DNA of 64,000 bases from a virus (taxonomy: Duplodnaviria > Heunggongvirae > Uroviricota > Caudoviricetes), in the IMG/VR virus record IMGVR_UViG_2974696732_000001, one strand, 5' to 3'. This document shows, piece by piece, positions 14,422-56,651 of this stretch; position 1 is the first letter of the stretch; every line of letters starts with the position of its first letter. Under the pieces are notes generated by a model, which searched no databases, was not told the origin of the DNA, and saw only the letters and a list, made by a program, of their open reading frames with translations. The translations under genes were made by a program, and so were the position numbers.

Positions 14422-14485
14422 TTGGGTCGATTGAGACACGGTTATCTTACACAATGGATACTAGGTTCGATTCCTAGGGGTGCCG
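14422..14485 (+). ncRNA. noncanonical tRNA-like element (family member B)
   Basis: GGGTCGATTGAGACACGGTTATCTT plus a perfect T-arm CTAGGTTCGATTCCTAG, with no matching acceptor. A tail motif lies at 14546-14570. Confidence 0.3.
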
Positions 14486-14584: not shown

Positions 14585-15106
14585 ATGACGGTACTTCTAC
14601 GGACAATCCACGGAAGCCATCTGTATGGCCTTGCGCACGCAGGTTCAGACCGAGACATTTACGAAGTAATTGCCACGAAGCGAACCAAGCGAAAGCGCAA
14701 CATTAAGCAGACCATCGTGAATGGAGTTGACAAGACGGTCGTTGACCTCTCAACATTCATGCATATGGTTAATGAATGCGTACCTCAAGCACTTGAAGCG
14801 CTATGGACGCCGGTAGCGGAAGTTGATAAACTTCACGAATTCCGGACACAATATCGAGTGAATCGCGCCAAGATGAAGGAAGTATACATTCGAACCGCTC
14901 TGAACTTCGCCAAGAACGATGGAGTAAAGCAAAAGCGTCACGCTATTCGCCTGCTTCTCAATCTCGGTGCAGCTCTGGAGTATGGTAAATTCAATCCCCA
15001 GCTTTCCAATATGGACAAGTTCATCATAAACTCTTCCATGGGTGAAACTGGAGCATACGAGGATGTCTTCCTAGGCGTCCTTGATGAAGTACAAAAGTGG
15101 GTCTGA
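14585..15106 (+). CDS. putative minimal nucleotidyltransferase (Pol-beta superfamily-like)
   Basis: HGSHLYGLAHAGSDRDIY resembles the GS-x9-13-D-x-D NTase motif. Confidence 0.4.
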   Translation: MTVLLRTIHGSHLYGLAHAGSDRDIYEVIATKRTKRKRNIKQTIVNGVDKTVVDLSTFMHMVNECVPQALEALWTPVAEVDKLHEFRTQYRVNRAKMKEVYIRTALNFAKNDGVKQKRHAIRLLLNLGAALEYGKFNPQLSNMDKFIINSSMGETGAYEDVFLGVLDEVQKWV

Positions 15107-15200
15107 TGGCTCACGCCAATGGGGCGTATACCCTCACTCTGATAAAGTGTAGAAAGGTTAATCGGTTACATGTGGGTTCAATTCCCACCGTCCCAACTGG
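15097..15200 (+). ncRNA. noncanonical tRNA-like element (family member)
   Basis: GTGGGTCTGA..AATCGGTTACA..T-arm GTGGGTTCAATTCCCAC. Overlaps the stop of the upstream gene. Confidence 0.3.
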
Positions 15201-17404: not shown

Positions 17405-17407
17405 CTT

Positions 17408-17471
17408 GTGGGTCGAAGATGATTGTTTATCTTCAAATCAGCGTGTTGGGGGTTCGAATCCTCCCTGGGGA
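17408..17471 (+). ncRNA. noncanonical tRNA-like element (family member C; tail to about 17553)
   Basis: GTGGGTCGAAGAT, a 6-bp hairpin GAAGAT/ATCTTC and T-arm GGGGGTTCGAATCCTCC. No acceptor partner. Confidence 0.3.
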
Positions 17472-17579
17472 CTTTATTGTCCTCGGTAACTCAATGGCAG
17501 AGTAGCTGACATTGCCCGAATGGGCTAAACGATTGTCACGCCATATCCACATCATATAACTACTACTTAAGGACAAATA

Positions 17580-22936: not shown

Positions 22937-24580
22937 ATGTCTAATGCACTTAACAACGCAGCTAAGGGTCTCAACAAGACTCCTCAGTCTGTCAAGGCCA
23001 AGGCAGGACAGGTCAAGAACAACGCTGGTGGATTCGTCTTCCAGGTTTCTGACCAGGCTCGCCTTGAGCGATTCCTTATCCTTGGTGTTGATGGTGGAAC
23101 CTATTACGTAAAGGAAGCCGACCACGCGCGTTCCAACGTACAGTTCCTCAATGACATGATTGAGCGAGACGAAGCCTCTGTACTGAACACAATCGTTGAT
23201 GTATCTGTCAATGGTCGTGCGTACAAGCAGTCTCCAGTCCTGTTCGCACTAGCCTCTGTCATTGTCCACGGACGTGACAAGCAGTCCGTCAAGGCTGTAT
23301 TTAATCGTGTTGTTCGTACTGGTACACACCTCTACGAGGTTGTGAACTACCTGAACACCATGGGTGGATGGGGTCGAGCAAAGCGTGAAATCGTTGCTAG
23401 TTGGTTCGAGCGCGATGCCGATAAGCTTGCTTACCAGATGGTCAAGTACCGTTCTCGTGAGTTTGCTGGCAACCGTTGGACCATGCGTGACGTAATGCGC
23501 AAGGCTCACCCACAGAACATGAACACTTCCGCTGCTGACTTTGCCCTCGGCAAGGAGCACGATGCTGTTGATGACCTTCGGGTTATTGAGGGTTTCAAGC
23601 TCATGCAGAAAGCTCAGTCTGTTGAAGACGTGCACAATGTTCTTCGGGCGTACGAGATGCTTCCTTGGGAGACTATCCCAACTCAGTTCCTCAAGGATTT
23701 GAGTGTCTGGAAGCGAATCTTCGCCAACGGTCAGCTTCGTGGTCAGGCTCTTGTCCGAAACATCACCCGTCTCGCACGGCTTGGTGCTTTCCAGGACATG
23801 CGTTTTGCTGCTGCTTATGCAGGACAGCTCACGAATCAGGAGATGATTGCGCAGACTCGTCTGCACCCAATCAACTTCCTGAACGCGACTGTTGTGTATA
23901 ACGATGGTCAGCTAAAGCGTGCCAAGGACCGCTGGGGCTACGAGAGTGAGCAGCGCGTAAAGGATTGGACGACTGAAAGTGTCATTGTCGATGCTCTCGA
24001 TGAGGGTTTCCACAAGGCATTCAAGACCGTCCAGCCTGCCGGTAAGCGAACGATGCTTGCTATTGATGTGTCAGGTTCCATGAGTGCAAAGGCTAACGGT
24101 CTCGACCTTAGCTGTGCTCAGGTTTCTGCTGCAATGGCAATGACCATCGCTCGTACCGAGCCAGCTCACATCATCCGTGGATTCACGTCTGATGGCTATG
24201 GTTGGAGGAACAGTGGTCTGACTGACCTCGGCATCTCCGCTCGTACAAACCTTGCTACGGCAATGCGTAATGTACAGCGAAGCAACTGGGGCGGCACAGA
24301 TTGTTCCCTCCCAATGCGTTGGGCTCTTGAGAACAAGGTAGAGGTTGACACCTTCGTGGTTATCACTGATAACGACACGTGGGCTGGCGACGTTCACCCA
24401 TTCCAGGCGCTCAAGGAGTACCGTAAGAAGACCGGAATCGACGCTCGCATGGCAGTTCTGGGAGTTCAGGCAACTGAATTCACCATCGCTGACCCAAGCG
24501 ACCGTGGAATGATGGACTTCGTAGGGTTTGACAGCAATGCACCTCGTGTGCTCGCTGACTTCTCCGCAGGTCGCATCTGA
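22937..24580 (+). CDS. rsr: Ro60/Rsr-like ribonucleoprotein (TROVE domain + vWA)
   Basis: 547 aa with an N-terminal TROVE-like region and a C-terminal vWA MIDAS motif AIDVSGSMS, matching the Ro60 architecture. Confidence 0.65.
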   Translation: MSNALNNAAKGLNKTPQSVKAKAGQVKNNAGGFVFQVSDQARLERFLILGVDGGTYYVKEADHARSNVQFLNDMIERDEASVLNTIVDVSVNGRAYKQSPVLFALASVIVHGRDKQSVKAVFNRVVRTGTHLYEVVNYLNTMGGWGRAKREIVASWFERDADKLAYQMVKYRSREFAGNRWTMRDVMRKAHPQNMNTSAADFALGKEHDAVDDLRVIEGFKLMQKAQSVEDVHNVLRAYEMLPWETIPTQFLKDLSVWKRIFANGQLRGQALVRNITRLARLGAFQDMRFAAAYAGQLTNQEMIAQTRLHPINFLNATVVYNDGQLKRAKDRWGYESEQRVKDWTTESVIVDALDEGFHKAFKTVQPAGKRTMLAIDVSGSMSAKANGLDLSCAQVSAAMAMTIARTEPAHIIRGFTSDGYGWRNSGLTDLGISARTNLATAMRNVQRSNWGGTDCSLPMRWALENKVEVDTFVVITDNDTWAGDVHPFQALKEYRKKTGIDARMAVLGVQATEFTIADPSDRGMMDFVGFDSNAPRVLADFSAGRI

Positions 24581-27931: not shown

Positions 27932-27998
27932 GGGTTTGATTGGTATAAGGTCAGTGAAAGCCGACAATGGACCGCTGACTGTAGAGGGTTCGAATCCC
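27932..27998 (+). ncRNA. tRNA-like element (acceptor and T-arm present, no anticodon arm found)
   Basis: GGGTTTG/CAAATCC acceptor pairing and T-arm GAGGGTTCGAATCCCTC. The interior holds a GTCAG..CTGAC stem with a 20-nt loop. Confidence 0.3.
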
Positions 27999-28080
27999 TC
28001 CAAATCCACTTGGTGATAAAGCTCCCCAAGCTGATATTCCATATCAGCCGGACACTTGGCGGTGACGCCCTTCACCTTAT

Positions 28081-28421: not shown

Positions 28422-28549
28422 AGGAGTATAGTTTAATTGGCAAAACCGTGAAATGCGCTGTCGAACGAGAGATGCTGCCGAGCTAAAGGCGGGTTCTCTA
28501 CTAGTAGATATCAGAGTAACAGTTGTCGGTTCGAATCCGGCTGCTCCGC
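28422..28549 (+). ncRNA. tRNA-like element with an insertion of about 50 nt (about 128 nt)
   Basis: 5' AGGAGTA pairs 6/7 with 3' TGCTCCG. D-arm-like GTTT/AAAC. T-arm GTCGGTTCGAATCCGGC. Far too long for a tRNA. Confidence 0.3.
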
Positions 28550-28692: not shown

Positions 28693-28763
28693 TCCGTAGT
28701 GGTGTAGTGGTAACATACCTCCTTGCCAAGGAGGCGTTGCGAGTTCGATTCTCGTCTACGGGA
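28693..28763 (+). tRNA. tRNA-Gly(GCC)
   Basis: Anticodon stem CCTCC/GGAGG with loop TTGCCAA, T-arm GCGAGTTCGATTCTCGT. Confidence 0.8.
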
Positions 28764-28765
28764 CT

Positions 28766-28899
28766 GGTGAATAAACTGGGTGGTATGCTGGTTCGACTCC
28801 AGCCTAGGTGATGGTCACGTGCGGTTCGAGTCCGCGTAATAAAATATTGGGTCAAATAGGGTAGCTCCCGCCGCAAGGTTCGATTCCTTGATATTCACC
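28766..28899 (+). ncRNA. compound tRNA-like element: terminal 8-bp stem enclosing three T-arm-like hairpins
   Basis: GGTGAATA..TATTCACC closing stem. Internal hairpins GCTGGTTCGACTCCAGC, TGCGGTTCGAGTCCGCG and CAAGGTTCGATTCCTTG. Confidence 0.35.
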
Positions 28900-28904
28900 T
28901 TCAT

Positions 28905-28977
28905 GCCCTGGTAGCGTAGTGGATAACGCGGCTGTCTTCTAAACAGTTACAGGCAGGTTCGATTCCTGTCCAGGGTA
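28905..28977 (+). tRNA. tRNA-Arg(TCT)
   Basis: Acceptor GCCCTGG/CCAGGGT, anticodon loop CTTCTAA, T-loop TTCGATT. Confidence 0.75.
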
Positions 28978-29060
28978 CGTTATGAAAATGCTCGGTAGAA
29001 AAGTCTGGAGAGGCCAGACGTTCGAAGACTCTCCAGTCAAAAACAAAATTTGGAGGCGTC

Positions 29061-33865: not shown

Positions 33866-33921
33866 CAAAGCGTCATTGCAAGGGCGCTCAATCACATTGG
33901 GGTTCGATTCCCTCTGGTGAA
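33866..33921 (+). ncRNA. tRNA minihelix-like element (acceptor-like stem + T-arm only)
   Basis: TCAC..GTGA stem flanking TGGGGTTCGATTCCCTC, preceded by hairpin AGCG..CGCT. Confidence 0.3.
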
Positions 33922-39576: not shown

Positions 39577-39842
39577 GGGGATGCCTTGGTTTCGACTGGG
39601 GTGGATGACATTAGTTTGCAGCCCGACATTGAGGAGATGTCGTTAAAGAGCCTCAAACCCATAAATGCCAACTCTAAGTTCGCATTCGCTCTTGCTGCCT
39701 GACGGTAGCTGAGCGGGGCTAGTGGGCGGCCTGGCAACAGAATAGCCCACCACAAACTTTCTTGTAACACCCCTTGACACATGGCTGTGTATAGACTACT
39801 GTTTGAAGCATCAGGACGCGGGTTCGACTCCCGCCATCTCCA
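39577..39842 (+). ncRNA. ssrA: tmRNA (SsrA), tag peptide ANSKFAFALAA
   Basis: 5' end GGGGATGCCTTGGTTTCGACTGGGG resembles the bacterial tmRNA 5' end. Tag ORF GCC AAC TCT AAG TTC GCA TTC GCT CTT GCT GCC TGA at 39667-39702. 3' T-arm GACGCGGGTTCGACTCCCGCC. Acceptor pairing GGGGATG/CATCTCC. Confidence 0.8.
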
Positions 39843-39914
39843 CGTGGATTACGAAACACTAATGAACAAGTGGATGAAAGTAATCAGAGATAAGAAAGGT
39901 TCTGTTACAGAATC

Positions 39915-42310: not shown

Positions 42311-42426
42311 GTTTGACCCCCCTTGACAACCAGCTTAGCCAAGTGTTAGGCTGGTTGTCTCATGCCGGGGAAGTTCTTTGGTAAGAACAGTCTCTCTATA
42401 GTGTTCATTTGATTGTGCACGGTCTC

Positions 42427-42455
42427 TTGACACCTCCTAGTAGCGCTGCTAGGAT
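42427..42455 (+). promoter_or_regulatory. promoter TTGACA-N17-TAGGAT
   Basis: Followed immediately by the minihelix at 42458. Confidence 0.45.
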
Positions 42456-42457
42456 GA

Positions 42458-42494
42458 CAGAGTAGAAAGGTTGGAGGTTCGATTCCTCCCTCTG
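42458..42494 (+). ncRNA. tRNA minihelix-like element directly downstream of a promoter
   Basis: CAGAG..CTCTG stem enclosing GGAGGTTCGATTCCTCC. Begins about 3 nt after the -10 at 42450-42455. Confidence 0.3.
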
Positions 42495-42590
42495 GCACTT
42501 AATGAAAACTATCAATTCGAAGAGTGGAAGGAGCGTAATGATTTACGACCCTGGTTAGTGTAGTCACTAACTTTGAAGGAGTGAATTATT

Positions 42591-43336: not shown

Positions 43337-44434
43337 ATGAAGTTCACCAAGATTTTCTCTCAGGACTTGCTTGACCAGATGGTCAACGAGGGTTTTGTTC
43401 GGGTGCAGACTCATCCGGTTCTCCCTCTGCGAATTCTGAACTACTCTGAGAAGGCTCAGTTTGCGGGTCGATGGAACGCCTGCACGCTTGCGTGCCGTGG
43501 TCTCATCATCGACCAGGACGACAATGTAATTGCTCGTCCTTTCGAGAAGTTCTTCAACATGGGGGACTCTCACGCTGCTGACATCGACTGGGATGCTCCG
43601 GTTGAGGTGACGGACAAGAAGGATGGCTCCATGGGCATCCTTTACTCGATTCGTCCTTACAACCCTGACATGCCGCCTTACGGTCACGAGTACAGCTTTG
43701 CTACCCGTGGTAGTTTTGCTTCTGACCAGGCAATTCACGCTACTAAGCTTTGGCTTGAGCGTTACAAGAACACTGCCGTGCCTCATGACTGGACGTTCAT
43801 TTTCGAGATTGTCTACCCTGACAACCGAATCGTCCTGGATTACGGAGACATGGACGACCTTATCCTTCTGGGTGCGGTCAACAAGGAGCACGGTTACGTG
43901 TACGGTCCTCGTGAGGCTGCGGCTTTGCTGGATTGGCAGGGGCCGGTAACCGAGGTGTTCGATTACAAGAACATTCACGAGGCTGTTGGTGCACCTTACC
44001 GCAGCAACGCTGAGGGTCTTGTTATTCGTTCTGGTGGCAAGATGGTCAAGCTCAAGCAGGCTGATTACATTGAGCTTCATCGACTCATTTCAATGCTTTC
44101 AGAGCGCTCTGTATGGAGTCAGCTCACTGAGGGCAAGACGATTCTGGAGATTTGTGAGGCTCTGCCTGACGAGTTTCACCAGTTCGTCAAGGATGTCGGT
44201 GGCAAGTTGCTCAGTGACTTCGAGCGCATTGAGATTGAGGTGCGTGGAATCTTCCACAACCTTCTTTCTTCAATGGACGAGGGGTTCACTCGACGCGATT
44301 TCGCAATGAAGGCCAACGGAGTTGACCACTACCGCAGCCACATGTTCAACCTGCTTGACGGGAAGGACATCAGTGAGCTAATCTGGAAGCAGTTGAAGCC
44401 CGCAGCCAAGAGTGAGGATGGATACCCGCAGTGA
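43337..44434 (+). CDS. RNA ligase, T4 Rnl1-like
   Basis: ACRGLII and EKFFNMGD match the Rnl1 N-terminal region. Motif I is KKDGSMG (the KxDG lysine adenylylation site). Confidence 0.75.
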   Translation: MKFTKIFSQDLLDQMVNEGFVRVQTHPVLPLRILNYSEKAQFAGRWNACTLACRGLIIDQDDNVIARPFEKFFNMGDSHAADIDWDAPVEVTDKKDGSMGILYSIRPYNPDMPPYGHEYSFATRGSFASDQAIHATKLWLERYKNTAVPHDWTFIFEIVYPDNRIVLDYGDMDDLILLGAVNKEHGYVYGPREAAALLDWQGPVTEVFDYKNIHEAVGAPYRSNAEGLVIRSGGKMVKLKQADYIELHRLISMLSERSVWSQLTEGKTILEICEALPDEFHQFVKDVGGKLLSDFERIEIEVRGIFHNLLSSMDEGFTRRDFAMKANGVDHYRSHMFNLLDGKDISELIWKQLKPAAKSEDGYPQ

Positions 44435-45149: not shown

Positions 45150-46055
45150 ATGGCTCAGCTTCTCATCCTCCGGGGCGTTCCTGGATGTGGAAAGTCCACT
45201 TTCGCTCACCAGTGGCTCAAGGAAGGTGAGCGGCGTGCTCGTGTAAACCGTGACGACATCCGTATGCAGTTCTTCGGTAAGGAGACTGGTGTGGATGAAG
45301 ACATGGTTACCAAGATTGAGCACCAGCAGGTAGACATGCTTCTCAAGTCTGGATACTCTGTGGTTGTCGATGACACCAACATCAGGTTCCAGTACATCAC
45401 AGCTTTCGTTAAGATTGCTGCGAAGCATGGCGTGCCTGTTGCAGTAAAGCAGTTCGATGTGGACCTCAAGACTGCCATTGAGCGCAATGCACACCGTGCT
45501 TCTCAGGGTGGTCGTGATGTCCCTACGCACGTCATCGAGAGGATGCACAAGTCTCTCAAGTCTTCTGGTCAGTACACTCGGAAGCACATCGAAGATGCTT
45601 GGGGAACTTCTCAGTCTGTGCAGCCTTACGTTCGGCCAGTAGGCAAGCGAAAGGTTTACCTCTTTGACATTGATGGCACTCTTGCCCAGATGTCTGACAG
45701 GTCTCCTTTTGAGTGGAACAAGGTTGGCAATGACGACCCCCGTCGTCAGGTTGTTCTGACTGCTCAGGCGCTTGCTGAGGCGGGCTACGAGATTGTTGTA
45801 ATGAGCGGTCGAGACTCTGTCTGCCGTGATGAGACAATTGCGTGGCTGGAGTTCTATGACATCCCCTTTGTTGACCTCTTCATGAGGGCAGAGGGTGACA
45901 TGCGTAAGGACAACATCGTTAAGCAGGAGCTGTTTGACAAGCACATTCGTGACTTCTACGATGTTGTGGCCGTCTTTGACGACCGGCAGCAAGTGGTTGA
46001 CATGTGGCGTGCGATGGGCGTAGACTGCTTCCAGGTCGCGCCTGGAGATTTCTGA
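45150..46055 (+). CDS. pnk: polynucleotide 5'-kinase/3'-phosphatase (T4 Pnk-like)
   Basis: P-loop GVPGCGKST kinase plus a HAD phosphatase DIDGTLA..SGR. Start trimmed to ATG 45150, downstream of the promoter at 45093-45121. Confidence 0.8.
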   Translation: MAQLLILRGVPGCGKSTFAHQWLKEGERRARVNRDDIRMQFFGKETGVDEDMVTKIEHQQVDMLLKSGYSVVVDDTNIRFQYITAFVKIAAKHGVPVAVKQFDVDLKTAIERNAHRASQGGRDVPTHVIERMHKSLKSSGQYTRKHIEDAWGTSQSVQPYVRPVGKRKVYLFDIDGTLAQMSDRSPFEWNKVGNDDPRRQVVLTAQALAEAGYEIVVMSGRDSVCRDETIAWLEFYDIPFVDLFMRAEGDMRKDNIVKQELFDKHIRDFYDVVAVFDDRQQVVDMWRAMGVDCFQVAPGDF

Positions 46056-56583: not shown

Positions 56584-56651
56584 AGGCCGGGTATACTAGG
56601 CACATCTAGGGAACTATGGGGTTCGAATCCCTACCGGCCGCAATAAATCCC
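56584..56651 (+). ncRNA. armless tRNA-like element (acceptor + one hairpin + T-arm)
   Basis: GGCCGG/CCGGCC stem, CTAG..CTAG hairpin and T-arm TGGGGTTCGAATCCCTA. 32 nt precede the T-stem, too few for a tRNA. Confidence 0.3.

Follow-up and report, generated by a model that had tools for sequence, protein, structure and literature searches.

What is encoded in the tRNA array of Streptomyces phage Paradiddles between the genes for tRNA-Gly(GCC) and tRNA-Arg(UCU), where three T-arm hairpins lie within 134 nt? We examined this locus in a stretch of 64,000 nucleotides (the window), which was identified as belonging to Paradiddles (MF347637; family Stanwilliamsviridae, genus Samistivirus) and whose positions equal those of the record minus 58707. 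The window spans the tRNA region of the phage, with small ORFs interspersed among the tRNA genes. Over the whole window, ARAGORN detected 42 tRNAs and a tmRNA, each encoded on the + strand; the phage tmRNA is located at 39577-39843. Paradiddles has 43 or more tRNAs, and genes for Ro60, for a nucleotidyltransferase of the RlaP type, for an RNA ligase of the Rnl1 type and for PNKP lie in the same region as the tRNAs and the tmRNA.

Locus and architecture

The three-T-arm unit occupies positions 28766-28899 on the + strand, the same strand as both of its neighbours. Upstream, tRNA-Gly(GCC) (28693-28764, + strand; end at 28763 according to Rfam) leaves 2 nt between its discriminator and the closing stem P1, and downstream tRNA-Arg(UCU) (28905-28978, + strand) begins 5 nt past P1. 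No annotated CDS covers 28766-28899, and the mechanical ORFs that overlap it run through tRNA genes. The motif GGTTCGANTCC is present in 38 copies in the window, where chance would give 0.07; every copy is on the + strand, and three of the 38 fall inside the unit. HNH endonuclease genes and several orphan T-arm hairpins were also seen in the tRNA arrays.

An earlier note, made from the letters of this DNA, had described three T-arm hairpins closed by an 8-bp terminal stem, forming a single unit too dense to be three tRNAs. The letters bear this description out, and the region is indeed one discrete, RNA-sized unit in which neither ARAGORN nor Rfam calls a tRNA. The spacing of about 35 nt given there has to be corrected: all three hairpins are present, but their starts are 33 and 54 nt apart. 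The unit was also said to abut tRNA-Gly(GCC), which holds to within the 2 nt after the discriminator, but tRNAs adjoin it on both sides.

The unit opens with the 5' strand of P1, GGUGAAUA (DNA GGTGAATA, 28766-28773), which forms eight Watson-Crick pairs with the 3' strand UAUUCACC (DNA TATTCACC, 28892-28899). The J1 junction AACUGGGU (28774-28781) follows; its UGG (28777-28779) is invariant in all aligned members and may be a D-loop analogue, that is, the partner of a T-loop. RNAalifold pairs the next three nucleotides, GGU (28782-28784), with GCC (28870-28872), and this helix, P2, encloses T1, H, T2, the linker or variable hairpin, the third UGG, AAAUA and P3. T-arm hairpin 1 (T1, GCUGG UUCGACU CCAGC, 28787-28803) consists of a 5-bp stem and a 7-nt T-loop. 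It is followed by H (GUGA UGG UCAC, 28808-28818), a 4-bp hairpin with a UGG loop, and by T-arm hairpin 2 (T2, UGCGG UUCGAGU CCGCG, 28820-28836), again with a 5-bp stem, whose outer pair is U.G, and a 7-nt T-loop. The segment 28837-28858 comprises an A/U-rich linker (28837-28847), the third UGG (28848-28850) and then GUCAAAUA. Within the invariant 19-mer AAAUAGGGUAGCUCCCGCC, the P3 hairpin GGG-UAGCU-CCC (28859-28869) precedes the 3' strand of P2. T-arm hairpin 3 (T3, CAAGG UUCGAUU CCUUG, 28874-28890), with a 5-bp stem and a 7-nt T-loop, adjoins the closing stem and is separated from it by a single unpaired A (28891); most members have A at this position, and a few have G or C.

Read from 5' to 3', the order is P1, J1 UGG, GGU, T1, H, T2, linker or variable hairpin, (U)GG, AAAUA, P3, GCC, T3, unpaired nucleotide and P1'. 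Across the members, one to four unpaired nucleotides separate the GCC strand of P2 from T3. Each of T1, T2 and T3 agrees with the T-arm consensus, i.e. a 5-bp stem, a G-C closing pair and a 7-nt UUCRANY loop.

Relatives and distribution

Relatives were sought by blastn against 50,697 phage records and by exact-pattern scans of IMG/VR, soil metagenome contigs and genomes. Blastn detected the element at the same Gly-Arg site in the Paradiddles group. In Loccivirinae phages (Sham, TunaTartare, Faust, Comrade, SparkleGoddess, Belfort, Karp, Stigma, Moab and Patelgo) it occupies another site, just upstream of the phage tmRNA. A shorter, two-T-arm form from which T2 is absent was found in Wofford/Elmer and in Blueeyedbeauty. 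Altogether, about 30 Streptomyces phage records carry the element, 26 of them as full forms and the others as short forms. The exact-pattern scans added three IMG/VR contigs (L023, L029 and L195), a dozen soil metagenome contigs (L196-L208) and one MAG contig (L209). Other products encoded on the soil contigs are a DNA polymerase of family A, a protein with an RF-1 domain and a NADAR protein. A scan of viral contigs with the 14-mer ATAGGGTAGCTCCC was swamped by chance matches and yielded no new member.

The members, 129-175 nt long, were thus found in Streptomyces BE-type phages and in phage-like soil contigs. All of the about 20 loci lie inside tRNA arrays, usually not more than 6 nt from a tRNA end, and the neighbours vary between tRNAs Gly, Asn, Pro, Met and Arg, or tmRNA. 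Among 185,579 bacterial and archaeal genomes, one per species, the exact 19-mer was matched by one tRNA-bearing MAG contig and once by chance. As the 19-mer is essentially absent from these genomes, the family appears to be phage-borne. As judged from the sequences searched, the three-T-arm RNA family is specific to tRNA arrays of large actinophages and related soil phages.

Conservation of secondary structure

Folding of the single sequence and comparison with relatives gave different results. The single-sequence fold of the element is not significant (z = -1.57), and its minimum free energy structure (-42.7 kcal/mol) disagrees in the inner domain with the comparative structure (-34.9 kcal/mol); for both reasons it was kept out of the evidence. 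Of the checks proposed in the earlier note, structure prediction on one sequence was therefore not informative by itself, but the comparison with related phages supported the structure, and covariation in them was strong, as expected of a conserved structured RNA.

Since the length of the junctions varies, MAFFT alignments (A1-A4) shift the closing stem out of register. A covariance model, R1, was built from seven in-register sequences, and 23 sequences were realigned with it. R1 assigned 80-154 bits to the 19 full-length members, 39-52 bits to short or variant two-T-arm forms and at most 26 bits to all tRNAs. The window holds a single R1 copy (92.2 bits, E about 1e-22), which matches the whole model (positions 1-137) and displays the family order of J1 UGG, GGU:GCC, T1, H with its GG loop, T2, AAAUAGGGUAGCUCCCGCC and T3. 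In the 23 realigned sequences, standard pairs made up 98.8% of alignment cells (73.7% in shuffles), changes on both sides were observed in 26 of the 31 modelled pairs, and the covariation score was 0.669 (0.165 in shuffles and at most 0.11 with the partners slid), all of these figures being somewhat inflated toward R1 because the alignment was fitted to it. A plain, independent MAFFT alignment gave the same covariation for T1 and T3.

The individual helices contributed to a different extent. All seven modelled pairs of P1 covary in the 23 sequences, with four to five pair types each, and 99.4% of cells are paired. P1 measures 7-12 bp, and its sequence differs in nearly every member, yet the pairing is kept; its 5' strands include, besides GGUGAAUA, also GCACAAAGAG, AUACAGAG, GUACAGAGG, CACAGAGGGU, GGUGAAGU, UGGGCAG, UCGGAAGCGC, UGGAGUG, UGGGGUG and GUCAAGG. 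Changes on both sides affect four of the five stem pairs of T1 and three of five in T3, with 100% of cells paired in both. In H all four pairs have changed on both sides, giving at least 11 stem sequences which are all still paired, and the loop is always UGG(N) or GGU, hence always containing GG. The four inner pairs of T2 are conserved, with rare compensatory variants in a soil contig (L205) and the MAG contig (L209). G.U pairs in P1, H and T3 are compatible with the + strand only.

P2 and P3 rest on very little covariation, as both are almost invariant. The three pairs of P2 (GGU:GCC) are kept in 22, 23 and 22 of the 23 sequences, including the short forms of Wofford, Blueeyedbeauty and L075. 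P3 is invariant in full-length members, and in Wofford it reads AGU-UAGCU-ACU, i.e. two compensatory pairs. A D-arm-like pairing of GG(N)G with CUCC around AAAUAGGGUAG had also been considered and was dropped in favour of the GGG/CCC hairpin, for which Wofford has the compensatory AGU/ACU. The invariance of AAAUAGGGUAGCUCCCGCC is partly a matter of ascertainment, because this 19-mer itself was the search pattern. The third UGG (or GG) after the linker is conserved in all members but one. In soil members the place of the A/U linker is taken by a hairpin whose length varies between 3 and 10 bp and whose loop is GCAA or UUCG, and such a tetraloop-capped variable hairpin, as read from the aligned sequences, is a pattern typical of selection at the RNA level. 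One soil contig (L198) retains hairpins 1 and 2 while the T-loop consensus is lost in both, from which it can be supposed that T-loop identity may not be essential. Taken as comparative evidence, these data show that the predicted secondary structure of the three-T-arm RNA is conserved and that its members constitute a real family of structured RNA distinct from tRNA.

Ro60 and a separate YrlA-like Y RNA

The product of gene 120 (gp120; 22937-24580, + strand) is a true Ro60 (TROVE 2.1e-31, vWA_Ro60 1.3e-60). As a Y RNA partner is expected in carriers of Ro60 (PMC4201824, PMC7824862), one is expected in Paradiddles. In Y RNAs the 5' end pairs with the 3' end and tRNA-like modules are present, bacteria often possess two or more of them, and the sequence GNCGAAN0-1G near the 5' end is the proposed Ro60 contact (PMC4201824). 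The three-T-arm element could be a second, YrlB-like Y RNA, whose closing stem would bind Ro60 while its T-arm modules would recruit an effector. It shares the paired ends and the tRNA-like modules, it is located 4.2 kb downstream of the genuine Ro60 gene on the same strand, and its invariant GUAGCUC matches the U8-A9-D-stem string of the YrlA consensus.

Several observations speak against this. Neither GNCGAAN0-1G nor any other conserved motif was found in the P1/J1 5' strands of the members, and the YrlA model does not match the element at E <= 10. The same model (Rfam YrlA, RF02553) does match an unannotated RNA at 17422-17536, with 34.8 bits over its full length, comparable to the 32.5 bits of the positive control, mycobacteriophage Bxz1. 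Besides its T, acceptor-like and D arms, this YrlA-like RNA has GUCGAAG (the GNCGAAG motif) upstream; it lies 5.4 kb upstream of the Ro60 gene, and in the intergenic regions adjoining that gene no Y RNA was found. Conserved copies of the YrlA-like RNA occur in 49 phage records, some of them from phages that have no three-T-arm RNA, and it is the more widely shared of the two. Ro60 itself is present in 115 Streptomyces phage records, the element in about 30, and the two are thus not co-distributed. Because Ro60 is universal in these phages, co-occurrence does not discriminate, and among IMG/VR contigs only L023 was seen to have both. In Loccivirinae the element adjoins the tmRNA instead and is about 8 kb away from Ro60 (in TunaTartare, Ro60 at 70309-71889 and the element at 79943-80056).

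The comparison with YrlA (RF02553; Chen et al. 2014, PMC4201824) can be drawn part by part. Both RNAs are closed by pairing of their 5' and 3' ends, both have a canonical T-arm and the tRNA-derived GUAGCUC, and both occur in Ro60-encoding actinophages on the strand of the tRNA genes, with which they are probably processed. They differ in that the three-T-arm RNA has three T-arms instead of one, contains neither GNCGAAN0-1G nor a D-arm of the GCUCA..GGUAGAGC type, and is distributed much more narrowly than Ro60. The possibility of a Ro60 ligand, raised when the locus was first read, is weakened by the missing Ro-binding motif, by the separate YrlA-like RNA at 17422-17536 and by the rarity of the element relative to Ro60. 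On these sequence grounds the three-T-arm RNA would be a poor candidate for the Y RNA partner of Ro60, and we regard a second Y RNA as improbable.

Modularity and dispensability

Next to this reading, and about equally improbable in our view, stands a purely cis-acting role, in which the element would be a spacer, insulator or processing platform in the polycistronic tRNA precursor and have no function in trans. It always lies within tRNA arrays, usually close to a tRNA, and in plant mitochondria tRNA-like elements do serve as processing signals. The Gly-Arg slot, too, is filled in other phages by unrelated closed-stem RNAs or by nothing: Lululemon, EGole and Coruscant have other closed-stem RNAs there, with one T-arm and the same ACAUGGAA junction, Jay2Jay/Targaryen, Anedea and Tomas have yet other RNAs, and in the Karimac group the slot is empty. 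From its sporadic presence among close relatives and the varying content of the slot, it can be concluded that the element is dispensable.

A spacer, however, would hardly call for what is conserved here. The same RNA is found beside different tRNAs and beside tmRNA, and its invariant 19-nt core and five internal helices far exceed the needs of an insulator. Moreover, Sham, Faust and TunaTartare share 96-97% identity with Paradiddles over the inner cassette (window 28773-28888), while P1 and T3 differ, and the Ro60 proteins of those same phages are only about 55% identical to that of Paradiddles. This points to selection on the RNA itself, or to its transfer. Wofford represents the converse: its P1 and T3 are shared with Paradiddles at the same site, and its interior is different and shorter. 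Together, these two situations indicate that scaffold and interior evolve as separate modules.

Relation to tRNA and tmRNA

A third possibility is that the locus encodes an unconventional tRNA, that is, one with an intron or an oversized variable region, or an aminoacylatable tRNA-like molecule. P1 and T3 do resemble an acceptor/T-arm minihelix, a type of structure recognised by RNase P, RNase Z and the CCA-adding enzyme. A-CCA follows P1 in one soil lineage, and the annotators of Comrade and its relatives took part of the element for a 'tRNA-Ser(tcg)'. The sole Rfam signal on the element, a tRNA-Sec pseudo-match, is compatible with an 8/5-like arm.

We consider this very unlikely. ARAGORN made no tRNA call between 28764 and 28905. 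No Rfam family (4227 families, gathering and E-value thresholds, whole window and isolated element) matches the element: the tRNA-Sec pseudo-match reaches 15.7 bits against a cut-off of 47, and the tRNA model RF00005 finds nothing on the isolated region even at E <= 10. The anticodon arm is absent, the only 7-nt loops being T-loops. With neither a tRNA call nor an anticodon arm, the intron-containing single tRNA, which had been named as the alternative that would overturn the reading of the locus as one multi-T-loop RNA, was not found. Comrade's tRNA-Ser uses T-arm 1 as its anticodon arm; when its cloverleaf was tried as a fold, the acceptor pairing UUUAUA/UAUAAA turned out not to be conserved in Paradiddles or soil members, and the call is a miscall. 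A-CCA is confined to the one lineage mentioned. Finally, a continuous 7-bp acceptor/T-stem is not formed. Given a P1 of 7-12 bp and one bulged nucleotide before T3, P1 and T3 are not a canonical 7/5 acceptor-T minihelix, and recognition of the unit by RNase P is uncertain.

More generally, tRNA (RF00005), the plant mitochondrial t-elements and mascRNA have in common with the three-T-arm RNA the T-arm consensus and a minihelix like that of P1 and T3; the latter RNA departs from them in having three T-arms and a length of 129-175 nt, with no anticodon arm or D-arm. As for tmRNA, neither ARAGORN nor Rfam (RF00023) calls one on the element. Its tRNA-like domain is similar in three respects: i) the paired ends form an acceptor-like stem beside a T-arm, ii) the 5' strand is followed by a putative D-loop analogue without a D-stem, and iii) the remainder of the molecule emerges at the position of the anticodon stem. 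In Loccivirinae the two are also related by location, the element being situated just upstream of the tmRNA gene. Unlike tmRNA, the three-T-arm RNA has no tag reading frame, no pseudoknots and no conserved G3.U70, and its closing stem has 7-12 bp with a bulged nucleotide before the T-stem.

That the element is non-functional debris, i.e. T-arm fragments left by recombination or homing-endonuclease activity, as HNH endonuclease genes and orphan T-arm hairpins in the arrays and the hypervariable slot might suggest, is strongly disfavoured and the least probable of all readings, given the compensatory changes in 26 of 31 pairs, an architecture conserved across distinct phage lineages and soil contigs, the tetraloop-capped variable hairpins and a covariance model which splits members from tRNAs by more than 50 bits.

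A model of function

Our best guess remains a stable tRNA mimic excised by tRNA-processing enzymes. In the model that we propose, the three-T-arm RNA would be co-transcribed with the neighbouring tRNAs. Its ends would be set by the enzymes that cut these neighbours, i.e. RNase P downstream and 3' trimming upstream, and P1 would protect them. P1, T3 and the UGG junction would imitate the top half of a tRNA (acceptor, T-arm and D-loop) as the tRNA-like domain of tmRNA does, and the inner parts would emerge where the anticodon stem would be.

In the tRNA elbow, G18-G19 contact psi55-C56. Each T-loop of the three-T-arm RNA may dock in this manner on one free UGG, so that up to three elbows might be formed. 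The number of free UGGs equals the number of T-loops: three and three in the full forms, two and two in Wofford, Blueeyedbeauty and L075. Three free UGGs and three T-loops suggest three tRNA "elbows".

Speculatively, such a multivalent tRNA mimic could engage a protein or RNA that recognises the T-arm or elbow, for example a tRNA-modifying or tRNA-processing enzyme or a host defence factor directed against tRNA. A tRNA-recognising partner would fit the heavy investment of the phage in tRNA supply and repair. Enzymes of tRNA modification come into consideration, since a T-arm hairpin by itself suffices as a substrate for TruB- and TrmA-type enzymes. No complementary target of the invariant 19-mer AAAUAGGGUAGCUCCCGCC was found in the window.

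According to the model, the product of the locus is a discrete, structured RNA, non-coding and about 134 nt long, which would be processed from the tRNA precursor and would act as a T-arm/elbow mimic for some tRNA-recognising factor; to this general reading we give about an even chance. Its more specific version, which is possible but rather unlikely in all its parts, takes the RNA for a multivalent decoy. With three elbows, each composed of a T-loop and a GG loop, it would titrate a host factor that recognises the T-arm or elbow of tRNA and in this way protect or favour the phage tRNA pool, and the cassette would be exchanged between phages as a module. Candidates for the titrated factor would be a nuclease or nucleotidyltransferase of tRNA-directed defence, or else an enzyme that processes or modifies tRNA.

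Novelty and meaning

In the searchable full-text literature, no description of such a three-T-arm RNA was found. The closest known things are YrlA, the tRNA-like domain of tmRNA and the stable RNAs C and D of phage T4. RNAs C and D (species 1 and 2) are encoded with the T4 tRNA genes, and neither is known to carry multiple T-arms. Compared by description only, they are likewise small stable RNAs of a phage tRNA cluster, from another host range and another phage family. More than one T-loop in a single RNA is also known from the double T-loop modules of the T-box stem I, the RNase P S-domain and the L1 stalk, in which interdigitated pentanucleotide T-loops in bulges bind the tRNA elbow. The three-T-arm RNA differs from these in having complete T-arm hairpins, and by analogy would imitate elbows rather than bind them. 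The functions of T4 RNAs C and D are themselves described as open ('RNAs of yet unknown functions', PMC9697503). A triple T-arm architecture in one closed scaffold appears to be unprecedented, although tRNA-mimicking non-coding RNAs as a kind are known.

Phages with dozens of tRNA genes are usually read as suppliers of tRNA; their arrays also hold conserved non-tRNA RNAs composed of tRNA parts. For deposited genomes, the analysis corrects the recurring mis-annotation 'tRNA-Ser(tcg)' and flags a YrlA-like Y RNA missing from the annotation of about 49 Streptomyces phage records. The element is a compact, well-defined target of about 130 nt, and with a secondary structure supported by covariation it lends itself to structural work and pull-downs. 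Phages and hosts already contend over tRNAs by way of anticodon nucleases, of repair with PNKP and RNA ligase, of Ro60 with its Y RNAs, and of tmRNA. If the three-T-arm RNA is indeed a multivalent tRNA mimic, it would represent a new tactic in this conflict.

YrlA-like Y RNA and RNA-repair genes

A YrlA-like Y RNA without annotation was found at window positions 17406-17545 (+), immediately preceded by tRNA-Ile(UAU). Its segment 17422-17536 matched the Rfam YrlA model (RF02553) with 34.8 bits, covering the whole model; T, acceptor-like and D arms were all present, and a GUCGAAG motif (GNCGAAN0-1G) was located immediately 5'. The Ro60 gene lies 5.4 kb downstream on the same strand. RNAs of this type were contained in 49 Streptomyces phage records and annotated in none of them. 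The YrlA-like RNA at 17406-17545 is probably the real partner of Ro60. In mycobacteriophage Bxz1, three tandem Y-RNA-like units appear to be present upstream of the Ro60 gene (L211 4040-4420), all of them containing the motifs GGCCGA(N) and UCGGUUA; the sole match to the Rfam YrlA model was the middle unit, which is the one with a tRNA-like domain.

Ro60 itself (TROVE and vWA_Ro60 domains, 22937-24580) belongs to a complete RNA-repair gene set dispersed across the tRNA array of the window, together with an RlaP-family nucleotidyltransferase (14585-15106), an Rnl1-type RNA ligase (43337-44434) and a polynucleotide kinase-phosphatase (45150-46055).

Other tRNA-like elements in the array

An 80-nt RNA consisting of a tRNA-like domain alone was observed at 27932-28011 (+). 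It scored 34.7 bits with the tmRNA model, under the 47-bit cut-off, and is distinct from the genuine tmRNA at 39577-39843; its acceptor (GGGUUUG/CAAAUCC), G3.U70 pair and discriminator A are alanine-identity-like. Two further segments, 28422-28549 (29.1 bits) and 42364-42497 (32.8 bits), both on the + strand, attained the threshold of the Rfam tRNA model solely with insertions of about 55-60 nt. Neither is annotated in the phage record; the counterpart of 28422-28549 in phage Wofford is annotated as tRNA-Phe, and an HNH endonuclease gene is inserted close by. Outside the tRNAs called by ARAGORN or annotated, orphan T-arm hairpins were detected at 14461-14477, 15172-15188, 33898-33914 and 56617-56633 (all +), the second of which falls within a weak Rfam tRNA match (15120-15196, 30.8 bits). 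These hairpins suggest additional tRNA-like elements in the array.

The three-T-arm RNA locus in related phages

The spacer between tRNA-Gly(GCC) and tRNA-Arg(UCU), which in the window harbours the three-T-arm RNA (28766-28899, +), is hypervariable among related phages (loci L005, L006 and L008-L012). In Lululemon, EGole and Coruscant, it is occupied by a closed-stem RNA of 103-106 nt with a single T-arm and the same ACAUGGAA junction, and in Jay2Jay and Targaryen by an RNA of 76 nt that has a 10-bp stem but lacks a T-arm. Different sequences are present at this site in Anedea (123 nt) and Tomas (130 nt), and the spacer is absent from the Karimac/Quaran19 group.

In Loccivirinae, the three-T-arm RNA is immediately preceded by approximately 140 nt of conserved sequence (GCGGGGAUGGCUGGUGUAGACGCAGCCGACCAG...) without an annotated gene (L002 ~445-588, L014 ~350-490, L015 ~355-488 and L003 ~470-583); this may be another structured RNA. 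The tRNA-Ser(tcg) of phage Comrade (L001 583-664) is a miscall spanning J1-T1-H-T2 of the three-T-arm RNA, with T-loop 1 (UUCGAUU) taken for an anticodon loop. The identical miscall was deposited for SparkleGoddess, Belfort and Karp.

Soil contigs and other multi-T-arm units

In four soil metagenome contigs (L196, L197, L202 and L208), genes for tRNA-Pro and tRNA-Met, with CCA encoded, formed dense arrays. These contigs further encoded a family A DNA polymerase of 1246 aa, a NADAR protein and a protein with an RF-1 domain. They represent an unusual phage-like lineage in which the three-T-arm RNA is likewise present.

Additional multi-T-arm units were found besides this RNA. A two-T-arm unit with a GUGCUGGU/ACCAGCAC closing stem, present in identical IMG/VR contigs (L049, L055, L058, L062, L070, L073 and L074), scored just 22 bits with R1, the covariance model of the three-T-arm RNA; another locus, L035, carried three T-arms in tandem (43 bits with the same model). 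Multi-T-arm RNAs may be a broader phenomenon among phages.
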